Assembly: GCA_019057795.1 (NCBI GenBank)
Contig: JAHLWS010000012.1
Location: 1-24,344, forward strand
Source: Promethearchaeota archaeon
GTDB lineage: Archaea > Asgardarchaeota > Lokiarchaeia > Sigyniarchaeales > SOKP01
Length of the DNA stretch: 24,344 nt
Direction: 5' to 3'
Translations under genes and position numbers: made by a program
Notes under the pieces: generated by a model
What the model was told of the DNA's origin: nothing
The model's input: the letters and a program-made list of their open reading frames with translations, nothing else
The model's database searches: none
In this document: positions 1,816-22,061 of the stretch, one piece after another
Layout of the letters: each line of letters opens with the position of its first letter
Numbering within the stretch: position 1 is the stretch's first letter

Positions 1816-2880
1816 ATGGGAAAGATTGATTTTAACGCAAAATTACTGGAAAAGAACAAACAAAGCGAAATTTGTTCTATTTATTCTGCTGCAGACGGAA
1901 TCGAAAGATCGCTTGAGAAAAATAAAGACTTGATCAAAAAATTGGCAATAGAAATGTATAAATATAACCCTGAACAAATTCTATTTGTGGGAAGCGGCGC
2001 TTCATATTGTACTTTATATACAGGCTACTATTTTTTAAGAACAAATTCATCCATATGGACAGTGCATTCTTTTGGTCCTGAAATTATATCTGATAATCCT
2101 TTATTTTTAGAGAAGTTACGTACTTTAGCAATACTTTCATCTTATTCAGGCAAAACAGAAGACACGCTTTTAGCAAGTAGCTTTTTAAAGAAAAAAAATA
2201 TTCCCATATTAGCGTTAACAAAAAGTGAAGATAATCCACTTGCTCAATCTGCTGATTTTGTTTTAGCTTACCACGATAAATGTTTGTATACATCGGCTAT
2301 GGCAAACCTTTTAATGCTGCTCTCACACTATATGATACTAAATGGTGAGCCAGATAATGCGATTAACTTGCAGAATGCATTATTAAAAGTTCCAGATGAC
2401 ATGCGTCACATTCAAGCGCTTAGTGAAGAGAAAGCATTGGTTGCTTTGGATAAAGTAAAGGAAGACAATTTCTTTTATGTTTTAGGCGATGGTGCCTTAT
2501 GGGCACTTGCTTACCAATTTGGTTATACAAATCTCATGGAGTATTCACGCGTACATGCTGCTTGTTTAAGAAATTGTGAATGGCGCCATGGACCTCTGGA
2601 AGTATTATCCAAAAAACCGGCAATTATAATGTTTATTGGAAATGATGCATCAAGGCCGTGGGCTATAGTTACAAAGAATTACTGTGAAAAAAACGGTGCA
2701 AATATTGTAACGTTTGATGTGAAGGATTATGTAAACACCAATCCAGTTTTAGCGCCGTTTATTCTCCATCAGGTAAGTCAGTTTTTCTTCCTATACCAAA
2801 GTACACAGCGAGGGATTGACATGGACGATTATTTAGAGATGCATGTAAAACCGTACAAGCCAGGAGAAAGTTATTTCTGA
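1816..2880 (+). CDS. SIS-domain protein, fructosamine/glucosamine-6-phosphate deglycase family (FrlB-like)
   Basis: Two SIS domains; FVGSGASY, SYSGKTEDT, LMEY and EWRHGPLEV (FrlB-type EFxHGPxE); RBS CAGGAG. Confidence 0.8.
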   Translation: MGKIDFNAKLLEKNKQSEICSIYSAADGIERSLEKNKDLIKKLAIEMYKYNPEQILFVGSGASYCTLYTGYYFLRTNSSIWTVHSFGPEIISDNPLFLEKLRTLAILSSYSGKTEDTLLASSFLKKKNIPILALTKSEDNPLAQSADFVLAYHDKCLYTSAMANLLMLLSHYMILNGEPDNAINLQNALLKVPDDMRHIQALSEEKALVALDKVKEDNFFYVLGDGALWALAYQFGYTNLMEYSRVHAACLRNCEWRHGPLEVLSKKPAIIMFIGNDASRPWAIVTKNYCEKNGANIVTFDVKDYVNTNPVLAPFILHQVSQFFFLYQSTQRGIDMDDYLEMHVKPYKPGESYF

Positions 2881-2952: not shown

Positions 2953-3270
2953 ATGAATGCTGTTATTTTATATGGACCTGGTAATATAGAAGTAAAAGAA
3001 GTTCCAAATGTAAAACCAAAAGAAAATGAAGTCTTAATAAAAGTAAAGAATTGTGGTGTATGTGGTATCGACATTTCTCTATTTAAAGGTAACTATCCTG
3101 CAAATTATCCGGTAATAATTGGACATGAATTTTCAGGTGAGGTTACTCAAGTTGGAAAAGACGTTTCCAATATTAGTATAGTTGAACATGTTACAGTAGA
3201 TCCAAATTTTGTTTGTCATTCCTGTTTTTTTATCTTTCCTTTAAAATCTCCCATTAATCAGTCGAATTAA
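2953..3270 (+). pseudogene. Truncated Zn-dependent medium-chain (sugar/polyol) dehydrogenase, GroES-like N-terminal domain only
   Basis: EVLIKVKNCGVCGID, IIGHEFSGEV and DPNFVCHSC; similarity stops at ~3225 inside the structural Zn lobe, with no NAD-binding domain; decayed motifs (VEHV for GDRV). Confidence 0.85.
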
Positions 3271-3393: not shown

Positions 3394-3422
3394 TTGACAC
3401 CGGACGAGAAATATTTTATTAT
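3394..3422 (+). promoter_or_regulatory. Sigma70-type promoter of the ROK/ABC operon
   Basis: TTGACA (3394-3399), 17-nt spacer, TATTAT (3417-3422). Confidence 0.7.
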
Positions 3423-3424
3423 AC

Positions 3425-3449
3425 ACTTAGTTAGTAAAGTTAATAAAGA
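3425..3449. promoter_or_regulatory. Candidate ROK-family operator overlapping the predicted transcription start
   Basis: ACTTAGTTAGTAAAGTTAATAAAGA = ACTT-N17-AAGA, a 25-bp imperfect palindrome shaped like XylR-type ROK operators, immediately after the -10 box. Confidence 0.45.
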
Positions 3450-3550
3450 AAGAATATTTAAGAACAAAATTAATATAAAAGTATGATAAAAAGCATTATA
3501 AAGAGAACCTGCTTTCTATCTAAAGAAAATAAAAGGAAAATAATTATTTA

Positions 3551-4693
3551 ATGGAAATAAGAAATATAAATAAAGGTTTAGTTTTAAGAACTATTGAGAA
3601 AAATGGTTCAATTTCAAGAGCAGATGTTGGTAAGATAGTAGGATTAGCCCCTCCCACCGTCTCTGCTATTGTTAAGGATTTAATTGAAAGAGATATAGTT
3701 CAGGAAATTGGAAAAGGAGATTCTTCGGGTGGAAAAAAGCCAATATTATTAAAAATAAATTCAAAAATAGCTTATATGATTGCAGTGGACTTAGGAGGAG
3801 AAAATGGAATAAGAGTAGCCTTGATGGATTTATCTTACAATATTGTTAACCAGAAGCTTGGACCAAAGATAGGGTCTTTAAATAGTCAAAAATTAAAAAA
3901 TTCACTTAGTGTTATATTAAAAGATTTTATAAAAGAGATAAATATTTCAAAAGAAAAAATATTGAGTATATGTATTGGTGTACCAGGGATTATAGACTTT
4001 AAATTAGAAAAAGTGACTGTAGCTCCTTATTTAAATTGGGAAATATCTTTGGAGGATTTGAAATTTAAAGGAATTAGAATACCAATCGTTCTTGAAAACG
4101 ATGTTAACCTAATGGCTTTGGGAGAGAAAACTAAAGGGAAAGCCCAAAAAATTAACAACTTTGTTTTTGTGGGAGAAAGAACCGGAATAGGTGTGGGTAT
4201 TATAATTAATGGCAAGCTTTATAAGGGAGCGAACAATGCTGCCGGTGAGGTAGGATATCTATTGATTGATCCCAAGTATGCCCCTAAAAACAGTAGAGAT
4301 TATGGTTGTTTAGAAAAATTAGCCAGTTATAAAATTATTATAGAGAAAACGAAAAAAAAGACAGGTAAGAACATTAAAGTTATAGATGTATTTAAAATGG
4401 CTGCCGAGGGAGATAATGTTGCCCTGAGAATTGTAAAAGAAGCATTAAAGTTTCTTGCTTATGGTATTGGAAATATATACTGTGTACTTGATCCGGAATT
4501 AGTAATAATCGGAGGGGGAATTTCAATTTTACCACCAAGATTTTTAGAGGAAATAAAGAAGAATATCAGGGAAATAACTCCTTTTGTTCCTAAGATAGAA
4601 TTTTCTAAGTTAGAAGAGGACGGAGTTTTAATTGGTGCAGCAGTAAAGGTGCTCGAGCCTTTGAAGAGAAGAGGACTAGCGCTTATTAAGTAG
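3551..4693 (+). CDS. ROK family transcriptional repressor (NagC/XylR-like)
   Basis: wHTH ISRADVGKIVGLAPPTVSAIVKDL, linker SSGGKKP, ROK motifs VPG, ENDVN, AGEVG and GCLE. The CxCGxxGC Zn motif is absent. Confidence 0.92.
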   Translation: MEIRNINKGLVLRTIEKNGSISRADVGKIVGLAPPTVSAIVKDLIERDIVQEIGKGDSSGGKKPILLKINSKIAYMIAVDLGGENGIRVALMDLSYNIVNQKLGPKIGSLNSQKLKNSLSVILKDFIKEINISKEKILSICIGVPGIIDFKLEKVTVAPYLNWEISLEDLKFKGIRIPIVLENDVNLMALGEKTKGKAQKINNFVFVGERTGIGVGIIINGKLYKGANNAAGEVGYLLIDPKYAPKNSRDYGCLEKLASYKIIIEKTKKKTGKNIKVIDVFKMAAEGDNVALRIVKEALKFLAYGIGNIYCVLDPELVIIGGGISILPPRFLEEIKKNIREITPFVPKIEFSKLEEDGVLIGAAVKVLEPLKRRGLALIK

Positions 4694-4903
4694 TAAGAGT
4701 TTTTTTATAGAAAAAGCTTAAAGACTGAGGTATATTTTAACGCACTTGAGAAGTCTAAGCGAAAAAAGGAGGTGATTTTTATAAATTTAGCGATAATCTT
4801 GTATTTGTTAACTAGAATGTCTATAAAGGAATACGTTAATAAGATCATTGAGATTCGTTCAAGGAAGAAAATTAAAATTATTTTTATTAGGAGGATTTTA
4901 GTT

Positions 4904-6190
4904 ATGAAAATGTTACTACCATTACCATTAATCAAAAAAATCTTACCACTAATGTTAGTATTTGTTTTTGTATTAGCTTTTGTTGTAATGGCGAGTGCTG
5001 AGAAAGTTGAGATTACTTACTGGCAGTATTTTTATCAGACCAAACAAGAGACAATTGATGTACTCATCGACCTCTTCGAAAAAGAAAATCCTGATATTAT
5101 AGTTGAGCATATAACTTTCCCTTATGAAAATTATAATGTCAAGGTTGCAGCTTCGGTACCTGCGAGGGTAGGGCCTAATGTAATTAATCTTTATTATGGT
5201 TGGTTACCACTATATATTGGTGCGGGTTACTTACAAGCATTGCCTGAAGATGTTTTTAATCCTGAGATGATTGAAAAAGATTTTTTCCCATTGGTTTCCG
5301 CAGCAAAAGTTGATGGTAAATATTATGCCTTACCAACAGCAGTAAGGTCTCTTGCTTTGATCTGGAATAAGGATCTATTTAAAGAGGCTGGTTTAGATCC
5401 AGAAATTCCTCCCAAAACTCTGGATGAATTAGTAGAATATGCACAAAAATTAACCAAATATGATAAGGCCGGCAATATCATACAGGCAGGTTTAACAACT
5501 GAGTTAAGGGGTCAATTGCATCATTGGGTAAGAGAGGTATTAATTCGTCAATTTGGTGGTAAACCTTATTCTGATGATAATCGTAAGGTAACCTATAATG
5601 ATCAGAGCGGTTACGATGCTTTTACATTCTTTACAGATTTAACAGAAAAATATAAAGTCGGTCAAGTAGGTTTTTTAACTGATGATGTTACTGCCTTTAA
5701 AGCAGGGAAAGCGGCAATGACTATTGATGGGTCTTTCAGAATTGGCACACTTGATAAGGTGAAAAACCTTAATTATGGTGTGGCTGAGGTACCTTCTCAT
5801 AATGGTGTTAAATCTAATTTTGCTTCTTTCTGGGCTAATGGTATTACCAGCTTCACTGAAGGTAAAAAATTGGAAGCTTCAATAAAATTTCTAAAATTTT
5901 TAACATCTGATAAGACTATGGAACTCTGGCTTAAGAATATTGGAGAGTTACCTGCCAAACCATCTGTAGCTTTCAAAGAAGAGAATATAAATAATCCTAA
6001 ATACGGACCCTTTATTAAAGGATTAGAATATGCCCATGCAACATACTTTGTTGATGAAATGCCTCAGAGACAGGTCTGGACAGATGCCTATGATATGATA
6101 ACATTGGAGGGTAAGACAGTCAAAGAAGCAGTCGATATAGCCGCTGAAACCGAACAGAATGTATTAGATAAATTTTATTCTGACAAATAG
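4904..6190 (+). CDS. Carbohydrate ABC transporter (CUT1) substrate-binding protein 1
   Basis: Start moved from 4772 to ATG 4904 (RBS AGGAGG at 4889-4894); hydrophobic signal peptide ending ASA; DGKYYALP, WNKDLFKEAGLD, PKTLDEL and FKAGKAAM motifs. Confidence 0.92.
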   Translation: MKMLLPLPLIKKILPLMLVFVFVLAFVVMASAEKVEITYWQYFYQTKQETIDVLIDLFEKENPDIIVEHITFPYENYNVKVAASVPARVGPNVINLYYGWLPLYIGAGYLQALPEDVFNPEMIEKDFFPLVSAAKVDGKYYALPTAVRSLALIWNKDLFKEAGLDPEIPPKTLDELVEYAQKLTKYDKAGNIIQAGLTTELRGQLHHWVREVLIRQFGGKPYSDDNRKVTYNDQSGYDAFTFFTDLTEKYKVGQVGFLTDDVTAFKAGKAAMTIDGSFRIGTLDKVKNLNYGVAEVPSHNGVKSNFASFWANGITSFTEGKKLEASIKFLKFLTSDKTMELWLKNIGELPAKPSVAFKEENINNPKYGPFIKGLEYAHATYFVDEMPQRQVWTDAYDMITLEGKTVKEAVDIAAETEQNVLDKFYSDK

Positions 6191-6203
6191 TATTTATATT
6201 CAG

Positions 6204-6233
6204 TAAAGGAGGGAGGAAACCCTCCCTCCTTTA
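6204..6233 (+). terminator. Intercistronic stem-loop after the SBP gene (partial terminator or mRNA stabiliser)
   Basis: Perfect 13-bp stem taaaggagggagg / cctccctccttta with a 4-nt loop. Confidence 0.75.
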
Positions 6234-6252
6234 GTTAAAGAGAGGTTTATTT

Positions 6253-7152
6253 TTGAAAATAAGATTTAATAAACTATCTATTGAACAAAAAAAGGCAGTC
6301 TGGGCCTATATTTTTTTATTTGTACCCTTAACATTTTATCTAGTAATAAGAATCTACCCGACCTTTAGTTCCTTTTATATTTCTTTTACTGACTGGGATA
6401 TAGTTTCTTCTGAAAAGCAGTTTATAGGATTAGAAAATTATCAAAAAATGGTTAATGACCCAGTATTTTTGAAAACTTTAGTTAACACCTTTAGGTACGT
6501 TATCTTTGGCCTACCTGTTAACTTGGTTTTAAGTTTTATAATAGCTTATAATTTAAATAAAATAAAACGTGGATTGGGATTATATAGAACATTGTACTTC
6601 ATACCTTATATGACATCATTGGTTGCAGTTTCCTGGGTCTGGAGATGGTTATATCAACCATTACCACTTGGCTTTTTTAATAATCTTTTAAGCTTTTTCG
6701 GTTTGGCACAACAGCCTTTTTTACAATCAACCAGTCAGGCCTTACCCTCAATTTTAGCACCGACCATATGGGCTGAGATAGGTTTCCAAGTTATTATATT
6801 TTTAGCTGGGTTAAAAGGAATTCCTGAATTATTATATGAGGCGGCAGATATTGATGGGGCAGATAATAGGCAAAAATTATTTAAGATTACGATTCCACTT
6901 TTAAGACCAACGATTATTTTTTTAGTTGTAATGGGTACAATTAAATATTTGCGTATTTTTACCCAGGTTTATACTATGACTTATCAGGGTGAGGGCGGTC
7001 CTTTAAATTCTACCAAACCCCTTGTTCTTTATATTTATAATAATGCTTTTAGAAGTTTTGATATGGGTTATGCCTCTGCTATGACAGTTGTTTTATTTGT
7101 ATTAATTTTATGTATAACTCTAATTCAGTTAAAAGTGTTGGAGGAAAAATGA
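6253..7152 (+). CDS. Carbohydrate ABC transporter permease (MalF/UgpA-like)
   Basis: FIGLENY; EAA loop IPELLYEAADIDGA; ITIPLLRP, GGP and GYASA; multiple TM segments; TTG start with RBS GAGG. Confidence 0.93.
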   Translation: MKIRFNKLSIEQKKAVWAYIFLFVPLTFYLVIRIYPTFSSFYISFTDWDIVSSEKQFIGLENYQKMVNDPVFLKTLVNTFRYVIFGLPVNLVLSFIIAYNLNKIKRGLGLYRTLYFIPYMTSLVAVSWVWRWLYQPLPLGFFNNLLSFFGLAQQPFLQSTSQALPSILAPTIWAEIGFQVIIFLAGLKGIPELLYEAADIDGADNRQKLFKITIPLLRPTIIFLVVMGTIKYLRIFTQVYTMTYQGEGGPLNSTKPLVLYIYNNAFRSFDMGYASAMTVVLFVLILCITLIQLKVLEEK

Positions 7153-7988
7153 ATAAAGAAAAAAATAATAAAGGAAAATTAAAAAGAACAAATCCAACTG
7201 TCTATGTTTTATTGGCACTTGGTGGAATTATTATGATCTTTCCCTTTGTCTGGATGATTGCGACATCATTTAAACAACCTTGGGATGTTTATAATCTGTC
7301 CATTATTCCACCAGAGGCAACTTTTAATAATTATATAAGGTTATTTGAGAGAAGCAATTTTCCCAGATGGTTTTTAAATTCTTTTGTGGTTGGTTTATTA
7401 GTTACTTTCTCTGTTTTGTTTTTTGATTCATTGGCTGGCTATACTTTGTGTAAGTTTAATTTTAAAGGGAAAAAAATAATTTTTATTTTAATTCTTTCTA
7501 CAATGATGATTCCAACTGAAATGTTAGTTATTCCCTGGTATATAATGTCGAATAAATGGGGCTGGGTTGATTCTTATTGGGGTATAATGTTCCCGGGAAT
7601 TATGACAGGTTTTGGTACTTTTTTAATGAGACAGTTTTTCCAGGGTGTACCTGATGAACTGTTAGATGCAGCTAGGATTGATGGATTAAATGAATTTCAG
7701 ATCTGGTGGAAGATCGCGATGCCTTTAGTTAAGCCTGCTATTTCTGCCCTCTCTATCTTTACTTTTCTCGGGAATTGGAATGCTTTTTTATGGCCATTAA
7801 TTGTTATCAGCAAGACTGAGTTATACACATTGCCCGTAGGTCTTGCTTTTTTCTCGGGTGAGTTCCAGACCGAATGGGAGATGGTTATGACTGGTGCTTC
7901 TGTGGCAACTATTCCTGTCTTAATAGTTTTTTTAATTTTCCAGAAACAAATAATTAAAGGTATTGCCTTATCAGGCTTGAAAGGATAG
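7149..7988 (+). CDS. Carbohydrate ABC transporter permease (MalG/UgpE-like)
   Basis: Start moved to ATG 7149 (ATGA overlap with the previous stop, RBS GGAGG); VPDELLDAARIDG, WNAFLWP, TLPVGL, FQKQIIKG. Confidence 0.93.
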   Translation: MNKEKNNKGKLKRTNPTVYVLLALGGIIMIFPFVWMIATSFKQPWDVYNLSIIPPEATFNNYIRLFERSNFPRWFLNSFVVGLLVTFSVLFFDSLAGYTLCKFNFKGKKIIFILILSTMMIPTEMLVIPWYIMSNKWGWVDSYWGIMFPGIMTGFGTFLMRQFFQGVPDELLDAARIDGLNEFQIWWKIAMPLVKPAISALSIFTFLGNWNAFLWPLIVISKTELYTLPVGLAFFSGEFQTEWEMVMTGASVATIPVLIVFLIFQKQIIKGIALSGLKG

Positions 7989-8932
7989 TGGTAAAGGTGT
8001 ATTCAGGATTAAAAATAATTGATTCACATTCTCATTTTCCAGTAAATGAGCCAATTATTAAAACAATGATGAGTGAAGGAAGATTTAATGAATTTAAACG
8101 AATAGCTGATAAACAACAAATCTCAAAAACTCAGGAAAAATGGAGAAAGGCATGGGGATTTGCAAAACCAGATGAGATTGTATTAACTGATGAAGAATTG
8201 GTTCAAAAATGGGTAGAGGAAATGGATAGAAGAGGGATTGATAAAATAGTCTGGGTAACTGGTGGAGGTAATGATCGCCTTGCCAGGATTATTAAAATGG
8301 CTCCTGATCGTTTTATCGGTTATGCCCATCATAATTTATTTGCGAAAGATGCAGCCTTAGAATTGGAGAACGCTATTGTTAAACTAGGTTTAAAGGGTTA
8401 TAAAATGTTAGCCCCTATTTTAGATAAATTAATAATCGATAAATCAGCTTATCCTGTCTGGGAGGTTTGTGTTAAATATAATCTGCCTGTATTAATTCAC
8501 TTTGGTATTATGGGAGCCGGTGGTGGTATTGCTTACAATGAAAATATAAATCCAGCTATTATGGAGAGTGTTGCTAAAGATTTTCCGGAGCTCAATTTTA
8601 TTATACCTCATTTTGGTTGTGGATACCTTAAAGAACTTTTGTTTTTAGGTTGGGTCTGTGAGAATATTTATGTAGATACTTCTGGGTCTAATCAATGGAT
8701 GCGCTGGATGCCATATCCAGTTAATTTGGAGTCGAGTTTTGAAAAATTTTATAAGACTTTTGGCCCGGAGAGGATTCTCTTTGGTACAGATTCATCATAT
8801 TTCCCCAGAGGTTATGCTATAGATTATTTAAAAGAGCAGAATAGGATTGTGCGGTTCTTAAATATTCCTGAGAATGAGGTACAAATGATTTTCGGGGGTA
8901 ACATAGCTAAATTATTAAATATAGAACTTTAG
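7988..8932 (+). CDS. Amidohydrolase_2 family metal-dependent hydrolase
   Basis: IIDSHSH metal motif, LPVLIHFG, IIPHFG, YVDTSG, RILFGTDS, IFGGN; GTG start overlaps the permease stop. Confidence 0.88.
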   Translation: MVKVYSGLKIIDSHSHFPVNEPIIKTMMSEGRFNEFKRIADKQQISKTQEKWRKAWGFAKPDEIVLTDEELVQKWVEEMDRRGIDKIVWVTGGGNDRLARIIKMAPDRFIGYAHHNLFAKDAALELENAIVKLGLKGYKMLAPILDKLIIDKSAYPVWEVCVKYNLPVLIHFGIMGAGGGIAYNENINPAIMESVAKDFPELNFIIPHFGCGYLKELLFLGWVCENIYVDTSGSNQWMRWMPYPVNLESSFEKFYKTFGPERILFGTDSSYFPRGYAIDYLKEQNRIVRFLNIPENEVQMIFGGNIAKLLNIEL

Positions 8933-8956
8933 AGTATTTTTCGTGGAGGTGAAATC

Positions 8957-10444
8957 GTGGAAAGGGATAATTATAAATTTCCGGCTACTAGCTATAAGGA
9001 TATGGTTTTGGAACCCCTTTTTGAAAGCTTTAAAGAGCATTTTTACCAACAATTGATGGCTATAAACTATGCCCATACAGTTATGCTTGCAGAACAAAAT
9101 ATTATTACTGTCGGGGAAGCTAAAGAGATTATTCAGGGCTTGTATGAAATAGATAAGGAGATAGATCTTACCTCTCTTAAATATACCGGAGAATTTGAGG
9201 ATGTATATTTTTATGTAGAACAGAAATTAATCAAGAAGATTGGTATAGAAATAGCAGGTAAGATGCATACAGGCAGAAGTCGTAATGATATGGATGTAAC
9301 CATATATAAGATGAAGATTAAGCTTTATTTATCTTCTCTAATAAACCATTTAGTAAAGTTAATTGATTCACTAATAAAAGTAGCGGAGGAAAATAAAGCA
9401 GCGATTGTCATTGCATATACCCATGGTCAACCCGCTCAGCCGACAACATTTGGTCATTATCTTGGGGCTTTAATTGAAATATTAGAACGTGATCTGGATC
9501 GCTTGTTCCAAGCCTATCGGGTTGTTGATAAGAGTAGTATGGGAGCAGCGGCAATTGCTACCTCCGGATTTAATTTAAACAGGGAAAGGATGGCTGAACT
9601 TTTAGGTTTTTCTGAAGTTCAGGAAAATTCTTATGGTTGTATTGCTGCGGTTGATTACTTAACAGAGGTTTATTCTAATTTAAAGATTTTATTTATTAAC
9701 CTGGGTCGTTTTATCCAAGACCTTGGGCAATGGACCAGTTTTGAGCTTTCTCATCTTTATGTTCCTGATGAGTTTGTTCAAATCAGTTCAATTATGCCCC
9801 AAAAAAGAAATCCGGTTCCCATTGAACATATGAGGATATTATCTTCAATTATGATCGGGCATTGTGATACCGTGGTTAATTCTATGCATAATACTCCATT
9901 TACTGATATGAATGATGCAGAGGACTCAATCCAGGTGATAGGATTTAAAGCTTTTTTCACTGGTGAAAGGGTTTTGAAGTTGTTGACAGATTTTATGTTA
10001 AACTTAAATGTTAATAAAGAAAAAATAAAAGAGCATATTGGAGAAACATATGTATCTATAACAGAGTTAGCTGATTCACTGGTAAGGGAAGAAGGGATAT
10101 CTTTTCGTCAGGCCCATGAAATTGCTTCTCAGATAGTTAAAACATTAATTAAGGAAAAGAAGCCGCTGGGGGATATTAAATACGAGTTATTTAGGTCTAT
10201 TTTTACTGAAACCATAAAGAGAGAACCTGATATTAGTGAAACCAAATTAAAGAAATTTGTTGACCCTGAGTATTTTATATCTGTTAGGGAGCAGTTAGGT
10301 GGTCCGGGGCCTCAAGCCTTAAGACGAAGTTTAAGCAACTATAAGGATAAACTTAATAATTTACAGAAAAATAATAAGAAAATAAAAGAATTCGAAGAAG
10401 CCGCTATCAATAAATTAAAAAGTGTGGTTAGGGAATATATGTAA
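8957..10444 (+). CDS. Argininosuccinate-lyase-like C-N lyase (fumarase/aspartase superfamily), non-canonical ArgH paralogue
   Basis: MHTGRSRND, AYTHGQPAQP, SSIMPQKRNP, TELADSLV and FRQAH; lacks the N-terminal WGGRF typical of biosynthetic ArgH; RBS GGAGGTG. Confidence 0.88.
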   Translation: MERDNYKFPATSYKDMVLEPLFESFKEHFYQQLMAINYAHTVMLAEQNIITVGEAKEIIQGLYEIDKEIDLTSLKYTGEFEDVYFYVEQKLIKKIGIEIAGKMHTGRSRNDMDVTIYKMKIKLYLSSLINHLVKLIDSLIKVAEENKAAIVIAYTHGQPAQPTTFGHYLGALIEILERDLDRLFQAYRVVDKSSMGAAAIATSGFNLNRERMAELLGFSEVQENSYGCIAAVDYLTEVYSNLKILFINLGRFIQDLGQWTSFELSHLYVPDEFVQISSIMPQKRNPVPIEHMRILSSIMIGHCDTVVNSMHNTPFTDMNDAEDSIQVIGFKAFFTGERVLKLLTDFMLNLNVNKEKIKEHIGETYVSITELADSLVREEGISFRQAHEIASQIVKTLIKEKKPLGDIKYELFRSIFTETIKREPDISETKLKKFVDPEYFISVREQLGGPGPQALRRSLSNYKDKLNNLQKNNKKIKEFEEAAINKLKSVVREYM

Positions 10445-10455
10445 GGGTAATTATT

Positions 10456-10497
10456 TTGGATTACTTTGTTTGTATTGATGGTAGAGATACTAAAACA
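10456..10497 (+). pseudogene. N-terminal relic of a BadF/BadG/BcrA/BcrD-type sugar (GlcNAc/GlcN) kinase
   Basis: TTG GAT TAC TTT GTT TGT ATT GAT GGT AGA GAT ACT AAA ACA = (M)DYFVCIDGRDTKT, a decayed 'YxxGIDGGGTKT' phosphate-1 motif, 11 nt after the lyase stop. Confidence 0.6.
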
Positions 10498-10624
10498 TGG
10501 GACATTCCCAATATTTTGTATTTTAAAATTCATTTTTATTAAGAGAAATTAAACTAATATGAAATATTATAATATTAAGTCCAAGCATAAGTTAATTTTA
10601 TCTAAAAACCTAATGGAGTAGTTT

Positions 10625-11824
10625 ATGAAAGGGAATGCAATTATAGGGCAATCTGGGGGTCCTACCTCGGTTATTAATTCGAGTCTTTGTGGTTTGGTCA
10701 AAGAAGGTCTTAAATCAAAAAAAATTGAAAAGGTCCTTGGTATGAGATTTGGGATCCAAGGATTTATGGAAGATGAGATTTTTGACTTGGGTAAAGAAAA
10801 TCCTCAAGTAATTGAAGGGTTACGTCAAACCCCTTCCTCTGCTTTGGGCTCATGCAGATATATATTAAAAGATGAAGATTCCCCACTTATAATGAAACAA
10901 CTTAAAAAGTATAATATACGTTATTTTTTTCTTATTGGAGGCAATGACACAATGGATACAATTAATCGTATAGAAAAATATTGCAGAGAGGATAATTATG
11001 AATTAAGAGCAATTGGAGTCCCTAAAACAGTAGATAATGATCTTTGTGGTACTGATCATACTCCAGGATTTGCCTCTGCTGCAAGATATGTTTGTCTTTC
11101 GGTCCAACAAGCTGGTCGACTTGCTCGAGATATGCAGAGAGTCGATAAATATGTTATTTTGCAAACTGTCGGCAGAGATACCGGATGGCTGGCAGCATCA
11201 GCGGTATTGGCAAAAAAAGGGGAATCTGACGCTCCTCATCTTATTTATATGCCTGAAAGGCCTTTATCAAAAGAAAAATATATATCAGATATCAAAAAGT
11301 GTATTGAAAAAAATGGATGGGTTTCAATAGTATGTGGTGAGGGTATCCGCTGGGAAGATGGAACACTTATAGCATCTACTCAAGCACAGGATGAGTTTTT
11401 AAATATTGAATTCGGAGCAATGGGTGGTGTTAGTGCAGCATTAAATTTACATAGGTTAATTAATCAAGAAACTAAATATAGGGGAGAGTTTCAAATAACC
11501 GAATCTCTTTCCATGTGTGCGATAGATAGAGCCAGTAAAGTTGATCTTGAAGAGGCTTATGATTGTGGAGTCAAGGCAATAAAATTAGCCGAAGAAGGTG
11601 CTTCGGGGATTATGGTTTCAATCCATCGGGTTAGTTCCTCTCCCTACAAAGTTAAATTAAAAACCGTTTCTCTTGATGAAGTTGCCTTACATACAAAAAC
11701 GATGGATGATAAATATATAAATACTCAAGGGAATTTTGTAACTGACGAATATATAAAATATATCAAACCATTAGTTGAAGAACTCCCCAGCTATAGTGAA
11801 TTAAATTTTATAAAAAATAAATAA
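10625..11824 (+). CDS. Phosphofructokinase A family, probable PPi-dependent type
   Basis: GQSGGPTSVIN, LGSCR, GGNDTMD (Asp of the PPi-type signature), PKTVDND, TDHTPGF and GEG; the usual ExMGR motif reads QTVGR. Confidence 0.88.
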   Translation: MKGNAIIGQSGGPTSVINSSLCGLVKEGLKSKKIEKVLGMRFGIQGFMEDEIFDLGKENPQVIEGLRQTPSSALGSCRYILKDEDSPLIMKQLKKYNIRYFFLIGGNDTMDTINRIEKYCREDNYELRAIGVPKTVDNDLCGTDHTPGFASAARYVCLSVQQAGRLARDMQRVDKYVILQTVGRDTGWLAASAVLAKKGESDAPHLIYMPERPLSKEKYISDIKKCIEKNGWVSIVCGEGIRWEDGTLIASTQAQDEFLNIEFGAMGGVSAALNLHRLINQETKYRGEFQITESLSMCAIDRASKVDLEEAYDCGVKAIKLAEEGASGIMVSIHRVSSSPYKVKLKTVSLDEVALHTKTMDDKYINTQGNFVTDEYIKYIKPLVEELPSYSELNFIKNK

Positions 11825-11895
11825 TCGTTATTTAGTAATAGGAGATTAGAGATGAATTTACAGGATAATAGATAAAATAAGGAGGGTTAAAAGAT

Positions 11896-12894
11896 ATGCA
11901 TGGTCGAAAGATATGGCCCGTACCAGTGCAAAAAATTATGCCCTATGAGGCAATTGAGGAAAAACGGCCTGTGGCATTAGTGACTAGTGGACCAGCATGG
12001 GAAGCCGTAAAATGTAAATTGAATCTTCCAATTGTTTGGCGAACTAATGTCAAAATGGCAATGGCTGATTACTGGGACAGTTTGATGGAAAATTTTAAGG
12101 GAGAAGTAATCTATGCTGTTGGTGGTGGGTTAGTAGTAGATGCAGCTAAGTACATAGCTATGAAACAAGGTTTGGAAATAGTCTGCCTTCCAACTGCACT
12201 TTCAGTTGATGCAATTACAGCGTGGTCTTCAGCTATTCGTGTAGATGGTTGTGTGGAATATATCCCTACAAAGATTGTAGATGAACTTTTGATTGATTTT
12301 GAAGTAATTGCCCAGGCTCCTTCCTTTATTCGCGCAGCAGCTATATGTGATCTTCTTTCTATTGCAACAGGACGTTGGGATTGGAAGTTTGCCGAAGAAA
12401 AAGGAAAAAATACCCCAGAAACAAAATTTATTCCCTATATTGATCATATGGCCGCATCTATTCTAGAAGGAGCAATTGATTGTGCTGAAGCAGCTGGTAG
12501 GGGTGATCAAGAAGGACTTAAGCAGTTATTGGATTGTATCATTTTGGAAACCCAAATGTTGAATCAAATAGGACATGCCCGACCCGAAGAAGGTAGTGAG
12601 CATTACTTTGCATATTTGGCGGAAAACTTAGTTGGATCGGGAAAACCTCATGCGAATCTAGTTTGCCCTGGTATTCTGATTATAGCTACTATCCAGGGGC
12701 AGGATATTGTACCATTGAAACGTGCAATGCGGTACTGCAATATTCCATTAAATGCGATTTTAAATGATTTCATTGAGGAAATTTTGAAACAGTTACCTAA
12801 ATATTGTACTGAACATGGATTATTGTATGGTGTTGCTCATGAGCTAAAGAAAGACGACTGGGAAAAGTTATCTTTTAAAAAAATTCTGAATTAA
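11896..12894 (+). CDS. Glycerol-1-phosphate dehydrogenase-like (EgsA/AraM; DHQS/Fe-ADH fold) polyol(-phosphate) dehydrogenase
   Basis: AVGGGLVVDAAKY, LPTALSVD, DLLS, GSEHYF and a second His (KPHA); RBS AAGGAGG. Confidence 0.8.
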   Translation: MHGRKIWPVPVQKIMPYEAIEEKRPVALVTSGPAWEAVKCKLNLPIVWRTNVKMAMADYWDSLMENFKGEVIYAVGGGLVVDAAKYIAMKQGLEIVCLPTALSVDAITAWSSAIRVDGCVEYIPTKIVDELLIDFEVIAQAPSFIRAAAICDLLSIATGRWDWKFAEEKGKNTPETKFIPYIDHMAASILEGAIDCAEAAGRGDQEGLKQLLDCIILETQMLNQIGHARPEEGSEHYFAYLAENLVGSGKPHANLVCPGILIIATIQGQDIVPLKRAMRYCNIPLNAILNDFIEEILKQLPKYCTEHGLLYGVAHELKKDDWEKLSFKKILN

Positions 12895-12901
12895 TAGAAA
12901 A

Positions 12902-13110
12902 ATTAACTTTGCTGTAAGGAGTAGAAGTAAAAATGGTATAAAAATTATTTGTAGTGCAGGCTCTAACCTTTTTGGTATAAATGAAGAAGACATGCAAGTA
13001 AAGGTTAATACTTGGGACTATATATTGCAAGATGAAGGAAGCGGATATGAGATTAGTATAAAAGCATTAAGGGTTTTAGTGAGAGTATAGGATGGTATGG
13101 GTGGTGTTAC
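12902..13110 (+). pseudogene. Internal relic of a BadF/BadG/BcrA/BcrD-type N-acetylglucosamine/glucosamine kinase
   Basis: Reads KNGIKIICSAGSNLFGINEEDMQVKVNTWDYILQDEGSGYEISIKALRVLVRV*DGMG, matching the family pattern GIVxIAGTGS..GGWGYLLGDEGSGY.IG..AL.....DGRG, with an in-frame stop and no start. Confidence 0.8.
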
Positions 13111-13206
13111 TATACAAAACAATAACGGAAGATTTAAATATTGTTGTATGCCACATTAACAAATGATTGTTTTAAAATATCAAATTTAAAGAAAGAGGAC
13201 AATATT

Positions 13207-14481
13207 ATGAACAAACTTGCTATTAATGGAGGAAAAAGTATAAGAAAAAAATCCTGGCCAGGGTGGCCTATTGTAGGAAAAGAAGAATTGGAACTTATGA
13301 GTGAAGTTATAAGTTCAGGTGTGTGGTCTTATAATGGTCCAAAAGAGAAAGAGTTTATAAGAAAATTTAGAGATTACATAGGAACTAAATATGCAGTATG
13401 TGCTGCCAACGGAACGGTTACTCTTCAAATAGCTCTTGAAGCTTTGGATATCGGTTACGGAGATGAAGTTATTGTTCCTGGTCTTACTTGGCAAGCTACC
13501 GCATCTTGCTGTGTTGATGTAAATGCAATGCCTGTTTTGGTCGATGTTGAGGAGGATAGCTGGTGCATTGATCCTGTAAAAATAGAAGAGGCTATTACTC
13601 CAAAAACAAAAGCTCTAATAATTGTTCATCTTTATGGTTCTAATCCAAAAATTGATGAAATAATTAAAATAGCTAAAGAGAATAACCTTTGCCTTATTGA
13701 AGATGCTGCCCATCAGTATGGTACTGTTATTAATGGTAAAAAGCCAGGTTCGTTTGGAGATATAGGTTCTTTTTCATTTCAGCAGTCAAAAGGACTAACA
13801 TCAGGTGAAGGAGGGGCTTTGACTACTAATAAAAAAGATTTAGCTGAAAAGCTTGATGCCCTCAGAAATTGTGGAAGAAGAGTTGTTTCATTAAATAGTA
13901 ATGTAAAGGAAGAAGAGAAAGGAAAGGGTTATTATAAGGAAGAAGGGAATTTTATACATTCTGGCAATTATAGAATTACTGAATTTCAGGCAGCTATACT
14001 TTTGTGTCAGTTACAAAGATTAGATGGGCAATTAAAGAAAAAAGATGAAAATGCTACTTATTTGAATAAAAAACTTAAGGAAATTGATGGCATTATCCCT
14101 ATGCGGAGGGAGAAAGAAACTCAGATACAAGCATATTTCAATTTCGCATTTAGATATGAAAAAAAATATTTTAAGAATCTTCATGTAAGTAAATTTAGAA
14201 AAGCATTATCGGCAGAGCTTGGTCTAGATATCCAACCTTGTTACGAACCATTAAATAACTGTCAATTTTATAGACCGCTTACTAAAAAAAGATATAACAT
14301 AAATCCAGAGTATTTTAAGAAAATCAACCCTTTAAGATTTTTACTGCCAGTATGTGAGAATGCTTTTAAAAACGAAAGTATAACATTCCACCACTCAGTT
14401 CTATTAGCAAAAAAGGAAGACATGAATGATATCCTGAAGGCCATAGTTAAAATAAAAGAAAATGTAGATGAACTGCTTTGA
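13207..14481 (+). CDS. DegT/DnrJ/EryC1/StrS PLP aminotransferase, StsC/BtrR/RifK-like subfamily
   Basis: Start moved to ATG 13207 (RBS GAGGA); LAINGG..WPGWP, NGT, GDEVIVPGLTW, IEDAAH, SFQQSKGLTSGEGG (PLP Lys), GNYRITEFQAA. Confidence 0.9.
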   Translation: MNKLAINGGKSIRKKSWPGWPIVGKEELELMSEVISSGVWSYNGPKEKEFIRKFRDYIGTKYAVCAANGTVTLQIALEALDIGYGDEVIVPGLTWQATASCCVDVNAMPVLVDVEEDSWCIDPVKIEEAITPKTKALIIVHLYGSNPKIDEIIKIAKENNLCLIEDAAHQYGTVINGKKPGSFGDIGSFSFQQSKGLTSGEGGALTTNKKDLAEKLDALRNCGRRVVSLNSNVKEEEKGKGYYKEEGNFIHSGNYRITEFQAAILLCQLQRLDGQLKKKDENATYLNKKLKEIDGIIPMRREKETQIQAYFNFAFRYEKKYFKNLHVSKFRKALSAELGLDIQPCYEPLNNCQFYRPLTKKRYNINPEYFKKINPLRFLLPVCENAFKNESITFHHSVLLAKKEDMNDILKAIVKIKENVDELL

Positions 14482-14522
14482 GTATAGATATAATGAATAT
14501 TAATAAAAAGGGAACATTTTAA

Positions 14523-15605
14523 ATGAAAACTTTAAATAAAAAAATAAAAGTTGGAATTGTCGGTTCAGGTTTTATATCAGGTATACATGTTCGTAGTTTA
14601 AAATCGGTATCTGATGCTGAGGTAATGGCTTGTTCCTCTATTGATGAAGAGGGTCTTAAAAAATTTACAAAGAAATACGAAATACCTTATTCTTTTATAG
14701 ATTATAGAAAAATGTTAGAAATGGATGAAATAGATGTAGTATGTTTAGGGGTTCCAAATAATTTACATCTTCAAATGACATTGGATTGCGCAACTGCAGG
14801 AAAACATATTATATGTGAAAAGCCATTGTGTAATAATTTGAGGGATGCAGATTCAATGATTAATACCTGCAAAGAAGCTGGGGTAAAATTAATGTATGTT
14901 GAACAATGTTGTTTTGCTCCTAAGTATATAAAATTAAAGGAACTTTACCAATCTGGATCGCTAGGGAAAATTTATTTTATAAAACACTCACAAAAACATG
15001 ATGGCCCTCATTCTACATGGTTTTGGGATGTTGAAAAAGTAGGAGGGGGAGTGGTTATGGATATGGGATGTCACACTTTTGGCTTTTTAAGGTGGTTAAC
15101 AGATAATGCAGAAGTTGAGGATATTTATTCCGAAATGGGGACTTATATGCATAAGGATAAAACAAGGGGAGAGGATACCGCAATAACTATAATAAAATTT
15201 AAGGGTGGTGTAACAGGGGTCTCAGAAGTTAGCTGGGCAAAGAAAGGTGGTTATGATGATAGAGCCGAAGTATATGGGTTAAAAGGAATTAGTTTTGCTG
15301 ATATGAGTTCTTCTCTTAGAACATATAGCGAAATTGGTTTTGAATATGTTTCTGAAAAGGCTCCAATATCTCTTGGATGGTCTTATCCCATATTTGAGGA
15401 GGAATGGCAGAGTGGTTTCCCCCAAATGTTTTCACATTTTATTGATTGTGTAAAAAATAATAAAATACCTATTATAACAGGCGAAGATGGGAAGGCAATA
15501 TTAGAAATGGTATTTGCTGCTTATAAGTCAGCTAAAGAGGGTAAAAAAGTAAAGTTACCATTTAAATCATATGCTGCCAAACCAATTGATCTTTGGATAA
15601 GTTAG
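14523..15605 (+). CDS. Gfo/Idh/MocA family NAD(P)-dependent oxidoreductase
   Basis: VGIVGSGFI, HIICEKP, GGGVVMDMGCH, GEDTA. Confidence 0.92.
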   Translation: MKTLNKKIKVGIVGSGFISGIHVRSLKSVSDAEVMACSSIDEEGLKKFTKKYEIPYSFIDYRKMLEMDEIDVVCLGVPNNLHLQMTLDCATAGKHIICEKPLCNNLRDADSMINTCKEAGVKLMYVEQCCFAPKYIKLKELYQSGSLGKIYFIKHSQKHDGPHSTWFWDVEKVGGGVVMDMGCHTFGFLRWLTDNAEVEDIYSEMGTYMHKDKTRGEDTAITIIKFKGGVTGVSEVSWAKKGGYDDRAEVYGLKGISFADMSSSLRTYSEIGFEYVSEKAPISLGWSYPIFEEEWQSGFPQMFSHFIDCVKNNKIPIITGEDGKAILEMVFAAYKSAKEGKKVKLPFKSYAAKPIDLWIS

Positions 15606-15702
15606 TTTGTTAATTTCAAAGTGTACTAATTTCGAGAAGTGTTTACACTTAGCTTAAAATAAATCGATCATGCGTGTGGTCTTTTCTATAGAATATTAAT
15701 AA

Positions 15703-16077
15703 CCAAAAATATTAATCCAAATTAAAGAATATGAAAAATTAGTCTTAATCACTGATACCATGAGGGCAGTAGACCTTAAAGAGGGAACTTATGATTTGGG
15801 TGGACAAGAAGTTATTGTGACTAAAGGACAAGTGAGTTTAAAAGACGAAACTTTAGCCGGTAGTGTATCAACTATGCATAAAGCAGTTAAAAACATGGTA
15901 AACAAAGTAGGTATTTCCTTACCAAAAGAGATTCAAATGACAAGCTTTAACCCGGCGAAATCTGTAGGAATAGATGATAAAAAAGGTAGTTTGGAGTCTG
16001 GTAAAGATGCCGATATAGTTATTTTAAACAAAAACTTGGAAACCGAACTAACTGTGGTAGCTGGAAAGGTAGTTTAA
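15703..16077 (+). pseudogene. nagA: 5'-truncated N-acetylglucosamine-6-phosphate deacetylase (C-terminal third only)
   Basis: The frame extends upstream of the listed ORF as KILIQIKEYEKLVLITDTMRA, then LAGS, NPAK and KGSLESGKDADIV. The N-terminal metal-binding region is missing and there is an in-frame TAA at 15700-15702. Directly upstream of nagB. Confidence 0.88.
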
Positions 16078-16092
16078 AGGAGGAATAAGGAA

Positions 16093-16824
16093 ATGAATAT
16101 TATAGTAGTGAAAGATTATAATGAGATGAGTTACCAGGCTGCCCAGCTAATTGCTGAACAAATTACAAAAAAAAGAAATTCGGTTTTAGGGTTAGCTACA
16201 GGTAGTACACCTGAGGGAATGTACAAAGAATTAATTAATTTAAATCAGGAGGATAAAGTGGATTTTTCAGAAGTAATTACCTTTAACCTGGATGAATACT
16301 ATGGCTTATCTCCAGAAAATCCGCAGAGTTATTGTTTTTTTATGTGGAATAAATTTTTTAAGCATGTTAACATTAAAAAAGAAAATATACACTTATTAAA
16401 TGGAATTACGGAAAATGTAAATAAGGAATGTAAACAATATGAAGATTTAATAAAAAAAAGTGATAGGATAGATTTACAAGTTTTAGGAATTGGTGACAAT
16501 GGTCATATAGGTTTTAATGAACCGGATATTAGTTTAAATACCCAAACTCATTTAGTAAACCTAACTACTAAGACGATTAAGGCAAATTCTCGTTTTTTTA
16601 ATAATGTTCAAGAAATTCCTAAACAAGCTATTACTATGGGAATAGGGACTATCATGCGGGCAAGAAAAATTATTTTATTAGCTAACGGTAAAAGAAAAGC
16701 CAGGGTTATTGAAAGAACAATAAATAGTCCTATTACTACTAAAGTACCGGCAAGCGTTCTTCAACTTCATAATGATGTAACCATAATTGCCGACCAGGAA
16801 GCGGCTTCTAAATTTATAAGTTGA
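16093..16824 (+). CDS. nagB: Glucosamine-6-phosphate deaminase
   Basis: LGLATGSTP, TFNLDEYYGL, LGIGDNGHIGFNEP, NSRFF, ITMGIGTI, PASVLQLH; RBS AAGGAGG. Confidence 0.96.
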   Translation: MNIIVVKDYNEMSYQAAQLIAEQITKKRNSVLGLATGSTPEGMYKELINLNQEDKVDFSEVITFNLDEYYGLSPENPQSYCFFMWNKFFKHVNIKKENIHLLNGITENVNKECKQYEDLIKKSDRIDLQVLGIGDNGHIGFNEPDISLNTQTHLVNLTTKTIKANSRFFNNVQEIPKQAITMGIGTIMRARKIILLANGKRKARVIERTINSPITTKVPASVLQLHNDVTIIADQEAASKFIS

Positions 16825-17577: not shown

Positions 17578-18927
17578 ATGAGAAAAGTATTATTAGTGAT
17601 AGCGGTGTTCTGTCTGCTTATGACAGCAACGCTGCTGGTAGCAGCAGAACAAAAATATGCAGGAGTTACTATACGGGTTATCGCTGAGCAACAGAATCCC
17701 ACCTTGGCGATGCAAAAACAAATACCAAAGTTTGAGGAAATAACAGGAATAAAAGTTGAGCTTGAAATTGGACCTATGGACAATGTGGTTGGTAAGGAAA
17801 TCCTGGCCTTAGAAAGCGGCACTGGTGCGTATGATCTCATTTCAATACCTTATCAATTCCTGGGGCAGTTAGAGGAGAATGGATATCTGCAGCCGTTGGA
17901 TCCTTTTTTAAATCGGGAAGATCTTAAACTTGAAGATTTTGACAAAAGTGATTTGATTTCGGGAATGGTGTCCGCTTCAGGGGAGTGGAAAGGTGTGAGT
18001 TACGGTATTACATCAAATTCGTGCATAATGATCATGTTTTATAGAAAGGATATCCTTGAAAACCCTGAAGAAAAGGCCGCTTTTAAAGCAAAGTACGGGT
18101 ATGAGCTAAAGTTACCGGTAAACTGGATTCAGTATCGCGATTTGGCTGAATTTTTTACCAGGAAATCGGGTGATAATCTAATGGGAGAAACCCTTAAGCA
18201 AAGTTTTTATGGTACAAGTATTGCAGGAAAACGACATGACGCTATGACCTGTGAATGGCTTAATTATGCATGGTCTTTCGGTGGCGGTATATTTGATGAA
18301 AAGGGTAATCTAATCATCGATAATCCAAAAAATGTTGAAGCTCTTGATTATTTCAAAGGTCTTGCGAAATTTTCTCCTCCAGGAGTAAGTAATAATACAT
18401 GGGATGAGTTAACTACCCAAATGCAGCAAGGCATTGTTGCAATGCAGATTCAATGGAATGATTGTGCTCCTTCTATAGAAGATCCTGAAACTTCAAAGGT
18501 AGTAGGGAAAGTCGGATATGCCTTAATACCTAAGGGCGAGGTACCCGTTGCCCACTTTGGTGCATGGACCTATTTTATTCCCGTTGATGCACCTAATCCC
18601 GAGGCAGCTTGGTTGTTTCTTCAATGGGTCAATACCTATAAAGTTCAGAAAGCAATTGCTCTCGAGGGAGGATTTCCATGTCTTACATCTGTGTATAATG
18701 ATCCAGAACTTAGTGAGAAATTGCCGTATTGGAAAGCAAGTCTAGATGCCTATGAGATAAGTACAACACGCCCACGTATCCCAGAATGGAATATCATGAA
18801 CAACGAAATGATGCTGGAACTCTCCATGGTTATAAGTGGAGAACAGACCTCAGCACAAGCTCTTGCAAATTTACAGAAGAAATACAATGATATATTGAAA
18901 GGGAAGCTGCCTGTTACTTATCAATAG
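17578..18927 (+). CDS. Carbohydrate ABC transporter (CUT1) substrate-binding protein 2
   Basis: Signal peptide; FEEITGIKV, YRKDIL, PVNWIQYRDLAEFF, GKVGYA, EAAWLFLQW, RPRIPEW; RBS AAGGAGG. Confidence 0.92.
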   Translation: MRKVLLVIAVFCLLMTATLLVAAEQKYAGVTIRVIAEQQNPTLAMQKQIPKFEEITGIKVELEIGPMDNVVGKEILALESGTGAYDLISIPYQFLGQLEENGYLQPLDPFLNREDLKLEDFDKSDLISGMVSASGEWKGVSYGITSNSCIMIMFYRKDILENPEEKAAFKAKYGYELKLPVNWIQYRDLAEFFTRKSGDNLMGETLKQSFYGTSIAGKRHDAMTCEWLNYAWSFGGGIFDEKGNLIIDNPKNVEALDYFKGLAKFSPPGVSNNTWDELTTQMQQGIVAMQIQWNDCAPSIEDPETSKVVGKVGYALIPKGEVPVAHFGAWTYFIPVDAPNPEAAWLFLQWVNTYKVQKAIALEGGFPCLTSVYNDPELSEKLPYWKASLDAYEISTTRPRIPEWNIMNNEMMLELSMVISGEQTSAQALANLQKKYNDILKGKLPVTYQ

Positions 18928-18945
18928 TATAATTTGAAATGTTAT

Positions 18946-18984
18946 TAATCAACTGGCTGACCAGATTGGTCAGCCAGTTGATTA
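18946..18984 (+). terminator. Intercistronic stem-loop after SBP 2
   Basis: Perfect 18-bp stem taatcaactggctgacca / tggtcagccagttgatta with a 3-nt loop and no U-tract. Confidence 0.75.
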
Positions 18985-19000
18985 CAACTAGGAGAATATT

Positions 19001-22051: not shown

Positions 22052-22061
22052 GAGGAAGGTA

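Follow-up and report, generated by a model that had tools for sequence, protein, structure and literature searches.

A non-ArgH lyase in a sugar-importer operon of a Promethearchaeota archaeon and its possible link to the breakdown of bacillithiol-derived glucosaminyl-malate

RESULTS

A proposed operon for uptake and cleavage of an amino-sugar conjugate

The window analysed here is the whole stretch of 24,344 nucleotides (positions 1-24,344) of contig JAHLWS010000012.1 in assembly GCA_019057795.1, from a Promethearchaeota archaeon whose genome is rated 100% complete. On its + strand lies an operon in which the genes of a ROK-family regulator, a CUT1-type ABC importer and a metal hydrolase are followed by that of an ArgH-like lyase. 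The lyase belongs to a family distinct from argininosuccinate lyase (ArgH), its linkage to importer genes recurs across phyla and, in Acidobacteriota, members of the family lie among genes of bacillithiol synthesis (bsh). We read these genes as an operon under ROK control for taking up and cleaving a conjugate of an amino sugar with a dicarboxylate, most likely bacillithiol-derived glucosaminyl-L-malate (GlcN-Mal) in the form of N-acetylglucosaminyl-malate (GlcNAc-Mal), cysteinyl-glucosaminyl-malate (Cys-GlcN-Mal) or a conjugate, and we give this reading a probability of about one half.

A preliminary description of the region, made by a model from the letters and a list of open reading frames, had named a ROK repressor, a CUT1 binding protein, two permeases, an amidohydrolase overlapping the permease stop and the lyase. 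All of them are present, as follows:

3394..3422, + strand: promoter-like site TTGACA-17-TATTAT preceding the ROK gene (11/12 matches, the best of the region; a consensus match only)
3551..4693, + strand: ROK-family regulator with an N-terminal winged helix, NagC/Mlc-like (ROK 152 bits; HTH_24 at residues 5-50)
4772..6190, + strand: CUT1-type extracellular solute-binding protein (SBP_bac_8 and SBP_bac_1)
6253..7152, + strand: ABC permease 1 (BPD_transp_1; orthologues 49-59% identical in related loci)
7110..7988, + strand: ABC permease 2 (BPD_transp_1; orthologues 55-72% identical immediately 5' of the lyase or hydrolase gene)
7988..8932, + strand: cytoplasmic Amidohydro_2 metal hydrolase (PF04909, 121 bits against a cut-off of 26.4)
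8957..10444, + strand: ArgH-like lyase of a distinct family (TIGR00838, 345 bits; PF00206; PF14698)

The GTG start of the hydrolase gene overlaps the TAG stop of the permease gene by 1 nt, the ribosome-binding site of the lyase gene is GGAGGTG, and no ABC ATPase gene lies within the operon. The regulator scores 161 bits on the NagC model, far under the NagC cut-off, and a ROK gene is found alongside the lyase in 22 related loci. For the binding protein, translation probably starts at an ATG near 4904, an internal methionine codon that precedes the signal peptide. Its orthologues, 42-62% identical, adjoin the lyase in five phyla; a sequence search of the PDB with the binding protein returned only generic sugar binders (GacH) and was uninformative on the ligand.

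The importer-lyase linkage recurs across phyla

In a scan of 185,579 species genomes (one per species) with two peptide patterns, at least 599 stretches were recovered, 593 of these with a relative, and 80 loci were kept; a scan of metagenomes gave 69 further loci, and gene content was compared by tblastn and by clustering of open reading frames. The order binding protein-permease-permease-lyase recurs in Alphaproteobacteria, Chloroflexota, Thermotogota, Deinococcota and Bacillota, so that the linkage proposed in the preliminary description is a conserved one. In Alphaproteobacteria this core usually comes with a divergent ROK gene and a gene for an 800-aa PIG-L protein, with MalK/UgpC and a PfkB kinase encoded downstream; in Chloroflexota, Pseudothermotoga, Trueperaceae and some Bacillota the same importer comes with an Amidohydro_2 gene. 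In Paenibacillus and Bacillaceae the lyase and a BadF kinase go with PIG-L, a creatininase-family protein and a different ABC importer. A TonB-type receptor, an SSF or APC transporter, PIG-L and the lyase make up the arrangement in one Woeseiaceae metagenome-assembled genome (MAG) and in Acidobacteriota, where it was reproduced in a fresh sample of 151 genomes.

Among the 80 loci, the 800-aa PIG-L protein is a partner in 29, Amidohydro_2 in 10 (11 including the window) and a BadF/NagK-like kinase in 11; PfkB kinases, Glk, ROK regulators and glucosamine-6-phosphate (GlcN-6-P) deaminases, either GlmS-type SIS proteins or NagB, recur as well. These kinases and deaminases fit the products foreseen in the preliminary description, fumarate and an amino sugar. 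The closest relatives of the window (lyase 93-99% identical) share the ROK, binding-protein, permease, Amidohydro_2 and lyase genes, and the genes 3' of the lyase vary among them.

An EamA/DMT-family transporter gene adjoins the system in five alphaproteobacterial loci (L015, L016, L020, L084 and L193), and an EamA/DMT transporter together with a GNAT protein recurs in the Bacillaceae-type loci L034, L040 and L057. It is conceivable that this transporter exports cysteine or mercapturate-type products.

The lyase is a paralogue of ArgH with its own signature

The lyase belongs to the fumarase/aspartase (Lyase_1) superfamily (PF00206, 148 bits; ASL_C2, PF14698, 53 bits) and, at 345.4 bits, passes the equivalog cut-off of the ArgH model TIGR00838 (279.5). 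Its homologues are named argH in RefSeq and carry the Gene Ontology term 'arginine biosynthesis', and it is the sole ArgH-like gene of the window genome, whose three Lyase_1 genes are fumC/aspA-like, purB and the lyase itself. On these grounds it could be taken for a genuine, divergent argininosuccinate lyase serving arginine synthesis or the salvage of arginine or citrulline, a possibility that we regard as very remote. The lyase is not ArgH, because its family forms a clade of its own, has lost the arginine-binding motifs, stands in the window genome without any match to argG and is accompanied by a canonical ArgH in five other carriers; it is, moreover, embedded in sugar-importer operons in several phyla.

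In a quick maximum-likelihood tree of 86 rows, 78 of them from the lyase family and none of them the ethylenediaminedisuccinate (EDDS) lyase sequence, the family forms its own clade with an SH-aLRT support of 98, and canonical ArgH forms a clade apart with a support of 99. The phylogeny thus bears out the earlier suggestion of a paralogue. The preliminary description had also found no other arg genes, which holds for the whole window genome as regards argG and further ArgH genes, and had proposed a check for a separate canonical argH. No separate copy exists in the window genome, but five carriers from four other phyla have a second, ArgH-type gene besides the paralogue. The paralogues score 294-328 bits on TIGR00838, compared with 600-706 bits for the canonical ArgH of four of these carriers; the canonical copy of Pseudothermotoga is short and scores 297. 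Most genomes of the same genus as the window genome are without the lyase gene.

Compared with ArgH/delta-crystallin (EC 4.3.2.1; Thermus thermophilus 2E9F, Escherichia coli 1TJ7), the lyase has the same fold and length and shares the three conserved regions, the serine loop SSIMPQKRNP, the histidine of the TH motif, and the lysine and glutamate; its product is presumably fumarate. It differs in scoring half of what a true ArgH scores on the ArgH model and in its setting, importer operons with amino-sugar genes. As the preliminary description had it, the catalytic signatures are present (HTGRSRND, AYTHGQPAQP and QISSIMPQKRNP) and WGGRF is absent. The alignment shows that the fumarate-binding and catalytic residues S108, R109, N110, T155, H156, S277, S278, K283, N285 and E290 are retained, that WGGRF is lost family-wide, and that the ArgH loop LAYxKDLQEDK is replaced by HNTP[FY]xDxxDxED in every subclade, the loop of the window lyase being HNTPFTDMNDAED. 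On the basis of the structures of delta-crystallin and argininosuccinate lyase, we take WGGRF and LAYxKDLQEDK to be the arginine-binding motifs. The acidic loop that stands in place of the latter would suit an ammonium group.

Among relatives of solved structure, EDDS lyase scores best (192 bits), with T. thermophilus ArgH close behind it (181 bits); the PDB entries concerned, 6G3D and 6RX8, bear the table label 'argininosuccinate lyase', and we presume them to be the EDDS lyase of Chelativorans sp. BNC1. This enzyme is likewise an ArgH-like protein recruited to the catabolism of a 2-substituted succinate other than argininosuccinate, but in the alignment it is without the THxQPAQP and HNTPF motifs of the family, and its substrate is an aminopolycarboxylate unconnected with sugars.

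Two further observations concern the lyase gene. One locus picked up by the peptide patterns, L090 (Asticcacaulis), encodes a canonical ArgH that groups in the canonical clade and is not a member of the family. In addition, the lyase segment of the window (8971-10570) shows 99-100% nucleotide identity to metagenome contig L102 and the binding-protein segment 96-98%, while identity in the flanks of the lyase segment is only 79-93%. Such a mosaic is suggestive of a recent event, either recombination or the transfer of some operon segments.

Members of the family lie among bacillithiol genes

To our knowledge, bacillithiol, a bacterial antioxidant with a glucosamine-malate core, is a very widespread thiol, and we know of no route for its breakdown. 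In Acidobacteriota, genes of its synthesis are found next to the lyase, and all of these bshA, bshB1 and bshC neighbours exceed their curated cut-offs. At locus L059, bshB1 (255 bits, cut-off 182), bshA (520 bits, cut-off 274) and the lyase gene follow one another on one strand with overlapping ends, and bshC is convergent; at L071 the lyase gene, bshB1, bshA and bshC stand together; L048 has the order bshC, TonB receptor, APC permease, PIG-L, lyase, glucokinase; and at L045, L051, L083 and L184 bshC lies within 10 kb of the lyase gene. The Paenibacillus loci end in a BshB2-like PIG-L gene. In the alignment, the signature of the family is alike in bsh-linked and importer-linked members.

The PIG-L enzymes include BshB and Bca, whose substrates are GlcNAc-Mal and bacillithiol conjugates and whose product is GlcN-Mal (PMC5790435). 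The PIG-L partners of the lyase resemble BshB/Bca, and the acidobacterial clusters hold bshB1, bshA and bshC themselves. The enzymes BshA, BshB1, BshB2/Bca and BshC differ from the system described here in that they make or recycle bacillithiol, and none that cleaves the GlcN-malate bond was found in the literature searched. The window operon for its part has neither a bsh gene nor a PIG-L gene and has Amidohydro_2 instead; five small PIG-L genes are found elsewhere in the genome. No glycosidase is encoded in the lyase operons, which leaves the lyase as the only candidate for freeing the sugar.

Some carriers of the lyase make bacillithiol (three Acidobacteriota, Paenibacillus, Bacillus and Trueperaceae) and others do not (Microvirga, Pseudothermotoga, a Chloroflexia MAG, a gammaproteobacterial MAG and the window genome). 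Every non-producer that was examined has an importer next to the lyase gene. Since the window genome encodes no BshA or BshC above the cut-off, its lyase and importer fit scavenging of the compound from outside.

Two different hydrolases accompany the lyase

The Amidohydro_2 orthologues, 43-91% identical, stand beside the lyase or its transporter in Chloroflexota, Thermotogota, Deinococcota and Bacillota, and the DxHxH motif, H114, H171, H208, D230 and D268 are invariant across 15 of them. We regard Amidohydro_2 as a dedicated partner of the lyase. It has no close characterised relative in a PDB sequence search and no match in an NCBIfam scan; a Foldseek search with its AlphaFold model (pLDDT 85.5) found LigW, LigJ, BB4693 and ACMSD at TM-scores of about 0.6, which identifies the fold family only.

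The 800-aa PIG-L protein retains the zinc motifs AHPDDE and HGHH, and its PIG-L domain is closest to Mca. It carries a signal peptide in Acidobacteriota and Paenibacillus and none in Alphaproteobacteria, and some of the secreted proteins also have NPCBM-associated domains. An Atlas search with the C-terminal 590 residues found only its own unnamed kin. Amidohydro_2 and PIG-L occur together in 0 of 76 loci, and at least nine changes in the link to Amidohydro_2 map onto the lyase tree.

Gene relics and unconserved genes downstream of the lyase

The following features lie between the lyase gene and the end of nagB:

10456..10510, + strand: N-terminal scrap of a BadF-type kinase gene (10456-10500) ending in a small hairpin (10498-10510); a sequence reading, too short to score alone
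10625..11824, + strand: pyrophosphate-dependent phosphofructokinase (PPi-PFK; PRK14072, 430 bits)
11896..12894, + strand: Fe-ADH_2 gene resembling glycerol-1-phosphate dehydrogenase (G1PDH; 93 bits on the G1P dehydrogenase model, below the cut-off)
12920..13156, + strand: middle fragment of a BadF/NagK-type kinase gene, a pseudogene relic (tblastn)
13141..14481, + strand: DegT-family aminotransferase (family match)
14523..15605, + strand: GFO/IolG-like oxidoreductase (family match)
15688..16077, + strand: C-terminal relic of nagA (model positions 254-380; 2 stops upstream)
16093..16824, + strand: intact nagB, GlcN-6-P deaminase (TIGR00502, 326 bits against a cut-off of 237)

The sugar-kinase relic noticed in the preliminary description is real: eleven BadF kinases of related loci match 12920-13156 by tblastn (best E value 4e-8) over about kinase residues 120-240, and intact BadF kinase genes follow the lyase in 11 Bacillota loci. 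Of nagA only the final 105-125 codons remain, directly before nagB, and no intact nagA exists anywhere in the window genome. With no intact nagA and a relic kinase, the route cannot pass through N-acetylglucosamine-6-phosphate and needs a kinase encoded elsewhere, or else is partly decayed; nagB without an intact nagA fits deacylation before the sugar is released. The stretch 10456-16077 resembles a lyase-BadF kinase-nagA-nagB series interrupted twice, by the PPi-PFK and G1PDH-like genes between the two kinase scraps and by the DegT and GFO genes between the kinase relic and the nagA relic.

The PPi-PFK and G1PDH-like genes are common only to the closest relatives L101 and L102. PPi-PFK, which the preliminary description had placed in the pathway, is missing from L104 and from every more distant locus, and DegT and GFO counterparts are found in none of the 80 related loci. 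Because they are unlinked to the lyase beyond the closest relatives, all four genes were rejected as pathway members and are placed outside the conserved system. In L104, a 93%-identical relative, a gene for a 164-aa cysteine-rich protein (6163-6657 of that locus) takes the place of PPi-PFK after the lyase.

Elsewhere in the window, positions 2953-3270 encode a 105-aa fragment of an alcohol dehydrogenase that is reduced to its GroES-like N-terminal domain, probably another gene relic. A second CUT1-type ABC operon (17578-23390) consists of genes for a binding protein and two permeases, followed by two class-III aminotransferase genes, and has no ATPase gene.

DISCUSSION

A proposed route from glucosaminyl-malate to fructose-6-phosphate

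We propose that the CUT1 importer, energised by an ATPase encoded elsewhere, would take up an N-acylated glucosaminyl-malate such as GlcNAc-Mal, bacillithiol or a conjugate. The cytoplasmic Amidohydro_2 enzyme would then strip the N-acyl group, a place that the 800-aa PIG-L amidase may fill in other phyla, and the lyase would release fumarate and the amino sugar, glucosamine (GlcN), by beta-elimination. Phosphorylation of GlcN would give GlcN-6-P, which NagB could convert to fructose-6-phosphate.

Enzymes of the lyase superfamily eliminate a group from C2 of succinate. The bsh clusters and the recurrent PIG-L partners favour an O-linked glucosaminyl-malate, and hence cleavage of a C-O rather than a C-N bond; the predicted reaction would be (2S)-2-(glucosaminyloxy)succinate to glucosamine and fumarate. 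Such an O-linked elimination from a 2-substituted succinate is chemically feasible, as fumarase and XcbC (a bacterial coenzyme M enzyme that eliminates phosphate) illustrate, although neither acts on a glycoside. On the XcbC model the lyase scores 229 bits, far under the cut-off of 575. Carboxymethyloxysuccinate lyase (EC 4.2.99.12) provides a further C-O elimination, again not on a glycoside, and we know of no sequence for it. A lactyl ether of the N-acetylmuramic acid type was rejected as the substrate, since, by the established mechanism of the superfamily, the substrate must carry a further carboxylate in the position beta to the leaving group. Syntheses have been published for the candidate substrate compounds (PMC5790435).

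N-linked sugar-aspartate conjugates

The preliminary description had proposed as the solute an N-(sugar)-aspartate or -asparagine (an Amadori, Heyns or opine-like compound), which a C-N lyase would cleave to fumarate and glucosamine or fructosamine as an alternative to the deglycases FraB and FrlB. This substrate appears improbable, and an O-linked glucosaminyl-malate would fit better. That the closest solved relatives of the lyase, EDDS lyase and ArgH, are C-N lyases speaks for the N-linked compound; so does the presence of PfkB kinases with GlmS/FrlB-type SIS proteins beside the lyase in Alphaproteobacteria and Acidobacteriota, and GlcN and fumarate would likewise result from a Heyns-type N-(glucos-2-yl)-aspartate. 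It would, however, leave unexplained the recurrent BshB/Mca-like PIG-L amidases, enzymes of GlcNAc and GlcN glycosides, and the presence of the lyase within bsh clusters.

The SIS genes count on both sides. A SIS gene lies upstream of the operon in the window (1816-2880), and its weakly FrlB/NagB-II-like product speaks for the N-linked compound, but it reaches 97 bits on the FrlB model against a cut-off of 430 and is missing from the related loci, even the closest ones. The SIS partner tested is much more like the GlmS isomerase domain (361 bits) than like FrlB (29 bits). The FraBDE and FrlBD systems, each a kinase with a SIS deglycase, do resemble the present one in taking up a sugar-amino-acid conjugate and in the PfkB and SIS partners seen in some related loci. 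They differ from it in that the conserved core here has a lyase in place of the deglycase, in that the SIS partners resemble GlcN-6-P deaminases, and in that PIG-L proteins have no role in Amadori catabolism. Nor did the 'opening' of the conjugate by the amidohydrolase, in the sense of FraE, hold up: Amidohydro_2 is not of the asparaginase type, and no gene of that type is present.

Evidence weighed for and against glucosaminyl-malate

Several points weigh against bacillithiol-derived glucosaminyl-malate as the substrate. The evidence for it consists of gene neighbourhoods, and adjacency to bsh genes is seen in 7 of about 95 loci, all of them acidobacterial and perhaps two or three independent arrangements; with adjacency confined to one phylum and so few arrangements, the assignment must stay provisional. 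The C-N chemistry of the nearest solved relatives (EDDS lyase and ArgH, at the scores given above) counts here too, and CUT1 binding proteins usually take neutral sugars. The broken kinase and nagA genes mean that the route in the window may be partly decayed. Members from the Bacillus cereus group (L061, L073 and L088) stand with genes for an SSF transporter, a nucleoside hydrolase, a beta-lactamase-like protein and a GNAT protein, so the family may span more than one substrate.

The hydrolase step raises difficulties of its own. NagA, an N-deacetylase, is a member of the wider amidohydrolase superfamily, but the characterised members of Amidohydro_2 comprise decarboxylases, hydratases and lactonases and no amidase; a role as N-deacylase, suggested by position in the operon, can therefore be offered only as a guess. 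In addition, a kinship-controlled sign test of whether Amidohydro_2 replaces PIG-L was not significant and had low power (nine independent pairs, b differing in 0-5), and we therefore keep the mutual exclusivity of the two hydrolases as a mere observation.

The same restricted bsh adjacency, limited to a small and related set of loci, leads to another alternative, which we consider rather unlikely: the solute could be an as yet undescribed conjugate of an amino sugar with a 2-substituted succinate, unrelated to bacillithiol, and the acidobacterial bsh neighbourhoods would then be incidental or reflect a side activity. Many carriers (among them Alphaproteobacteria, Chloroflexota, Thermotogota and the window genome) make no bacillithiol, and the presence of TonB receptors and of NPCBM-associated domains on secreted PIG-L proteins could hint at a larger, glycan-derived substrate. 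Against this stand the conservation of the family signature between bsh-linked and importer-linked members and the association of three different bsh genes and a BshB2-like gene with the lyase. We also count against it that we know of no other natural GlcN or N-acetylglucosamine compound with a malate- or aspartate-type group.

Glucosaminyl-malate thus remains our preferred substrate for the window operon. For the family as a whole we suggest tentatively, at somewhat less than even odds, that it derives from ArgH and acts as a glucosaminyl-malate lyase, opening the glycosidic bond by elimination of the sugar oxygen from malate. With an importer and a deacylase, either PIG-L or Amidohydro_2, it would make up a catabolic or salvage route for bacillithiol, the first to become known, by which producers and non-producers may harvest carbon, nitrogen and cysteine sulphur. 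A full-text literature search, which left out most subscription journals, found no account of this family of lyases, of any lyase for GlcN-Mal or of how bacillithiol is broken down.

Implications

The lyase gene occurs in hundreds of species under the label argH, and this mislabelling corrupts metabolic reconstructions and predictions of auxotrophy; in the window genome, for example, it would imply half an arginine pathway. If the proposed substrate is correct, the family would add a new type of reaction to its superfamily, the non-hydrolytic cleavage of a glycoside, and would supply the missing degradative side of bacillithiol metabolism. A major bacterial thiol would then be a nutrient exchanged within communities of soil, marine and thermal habitats.

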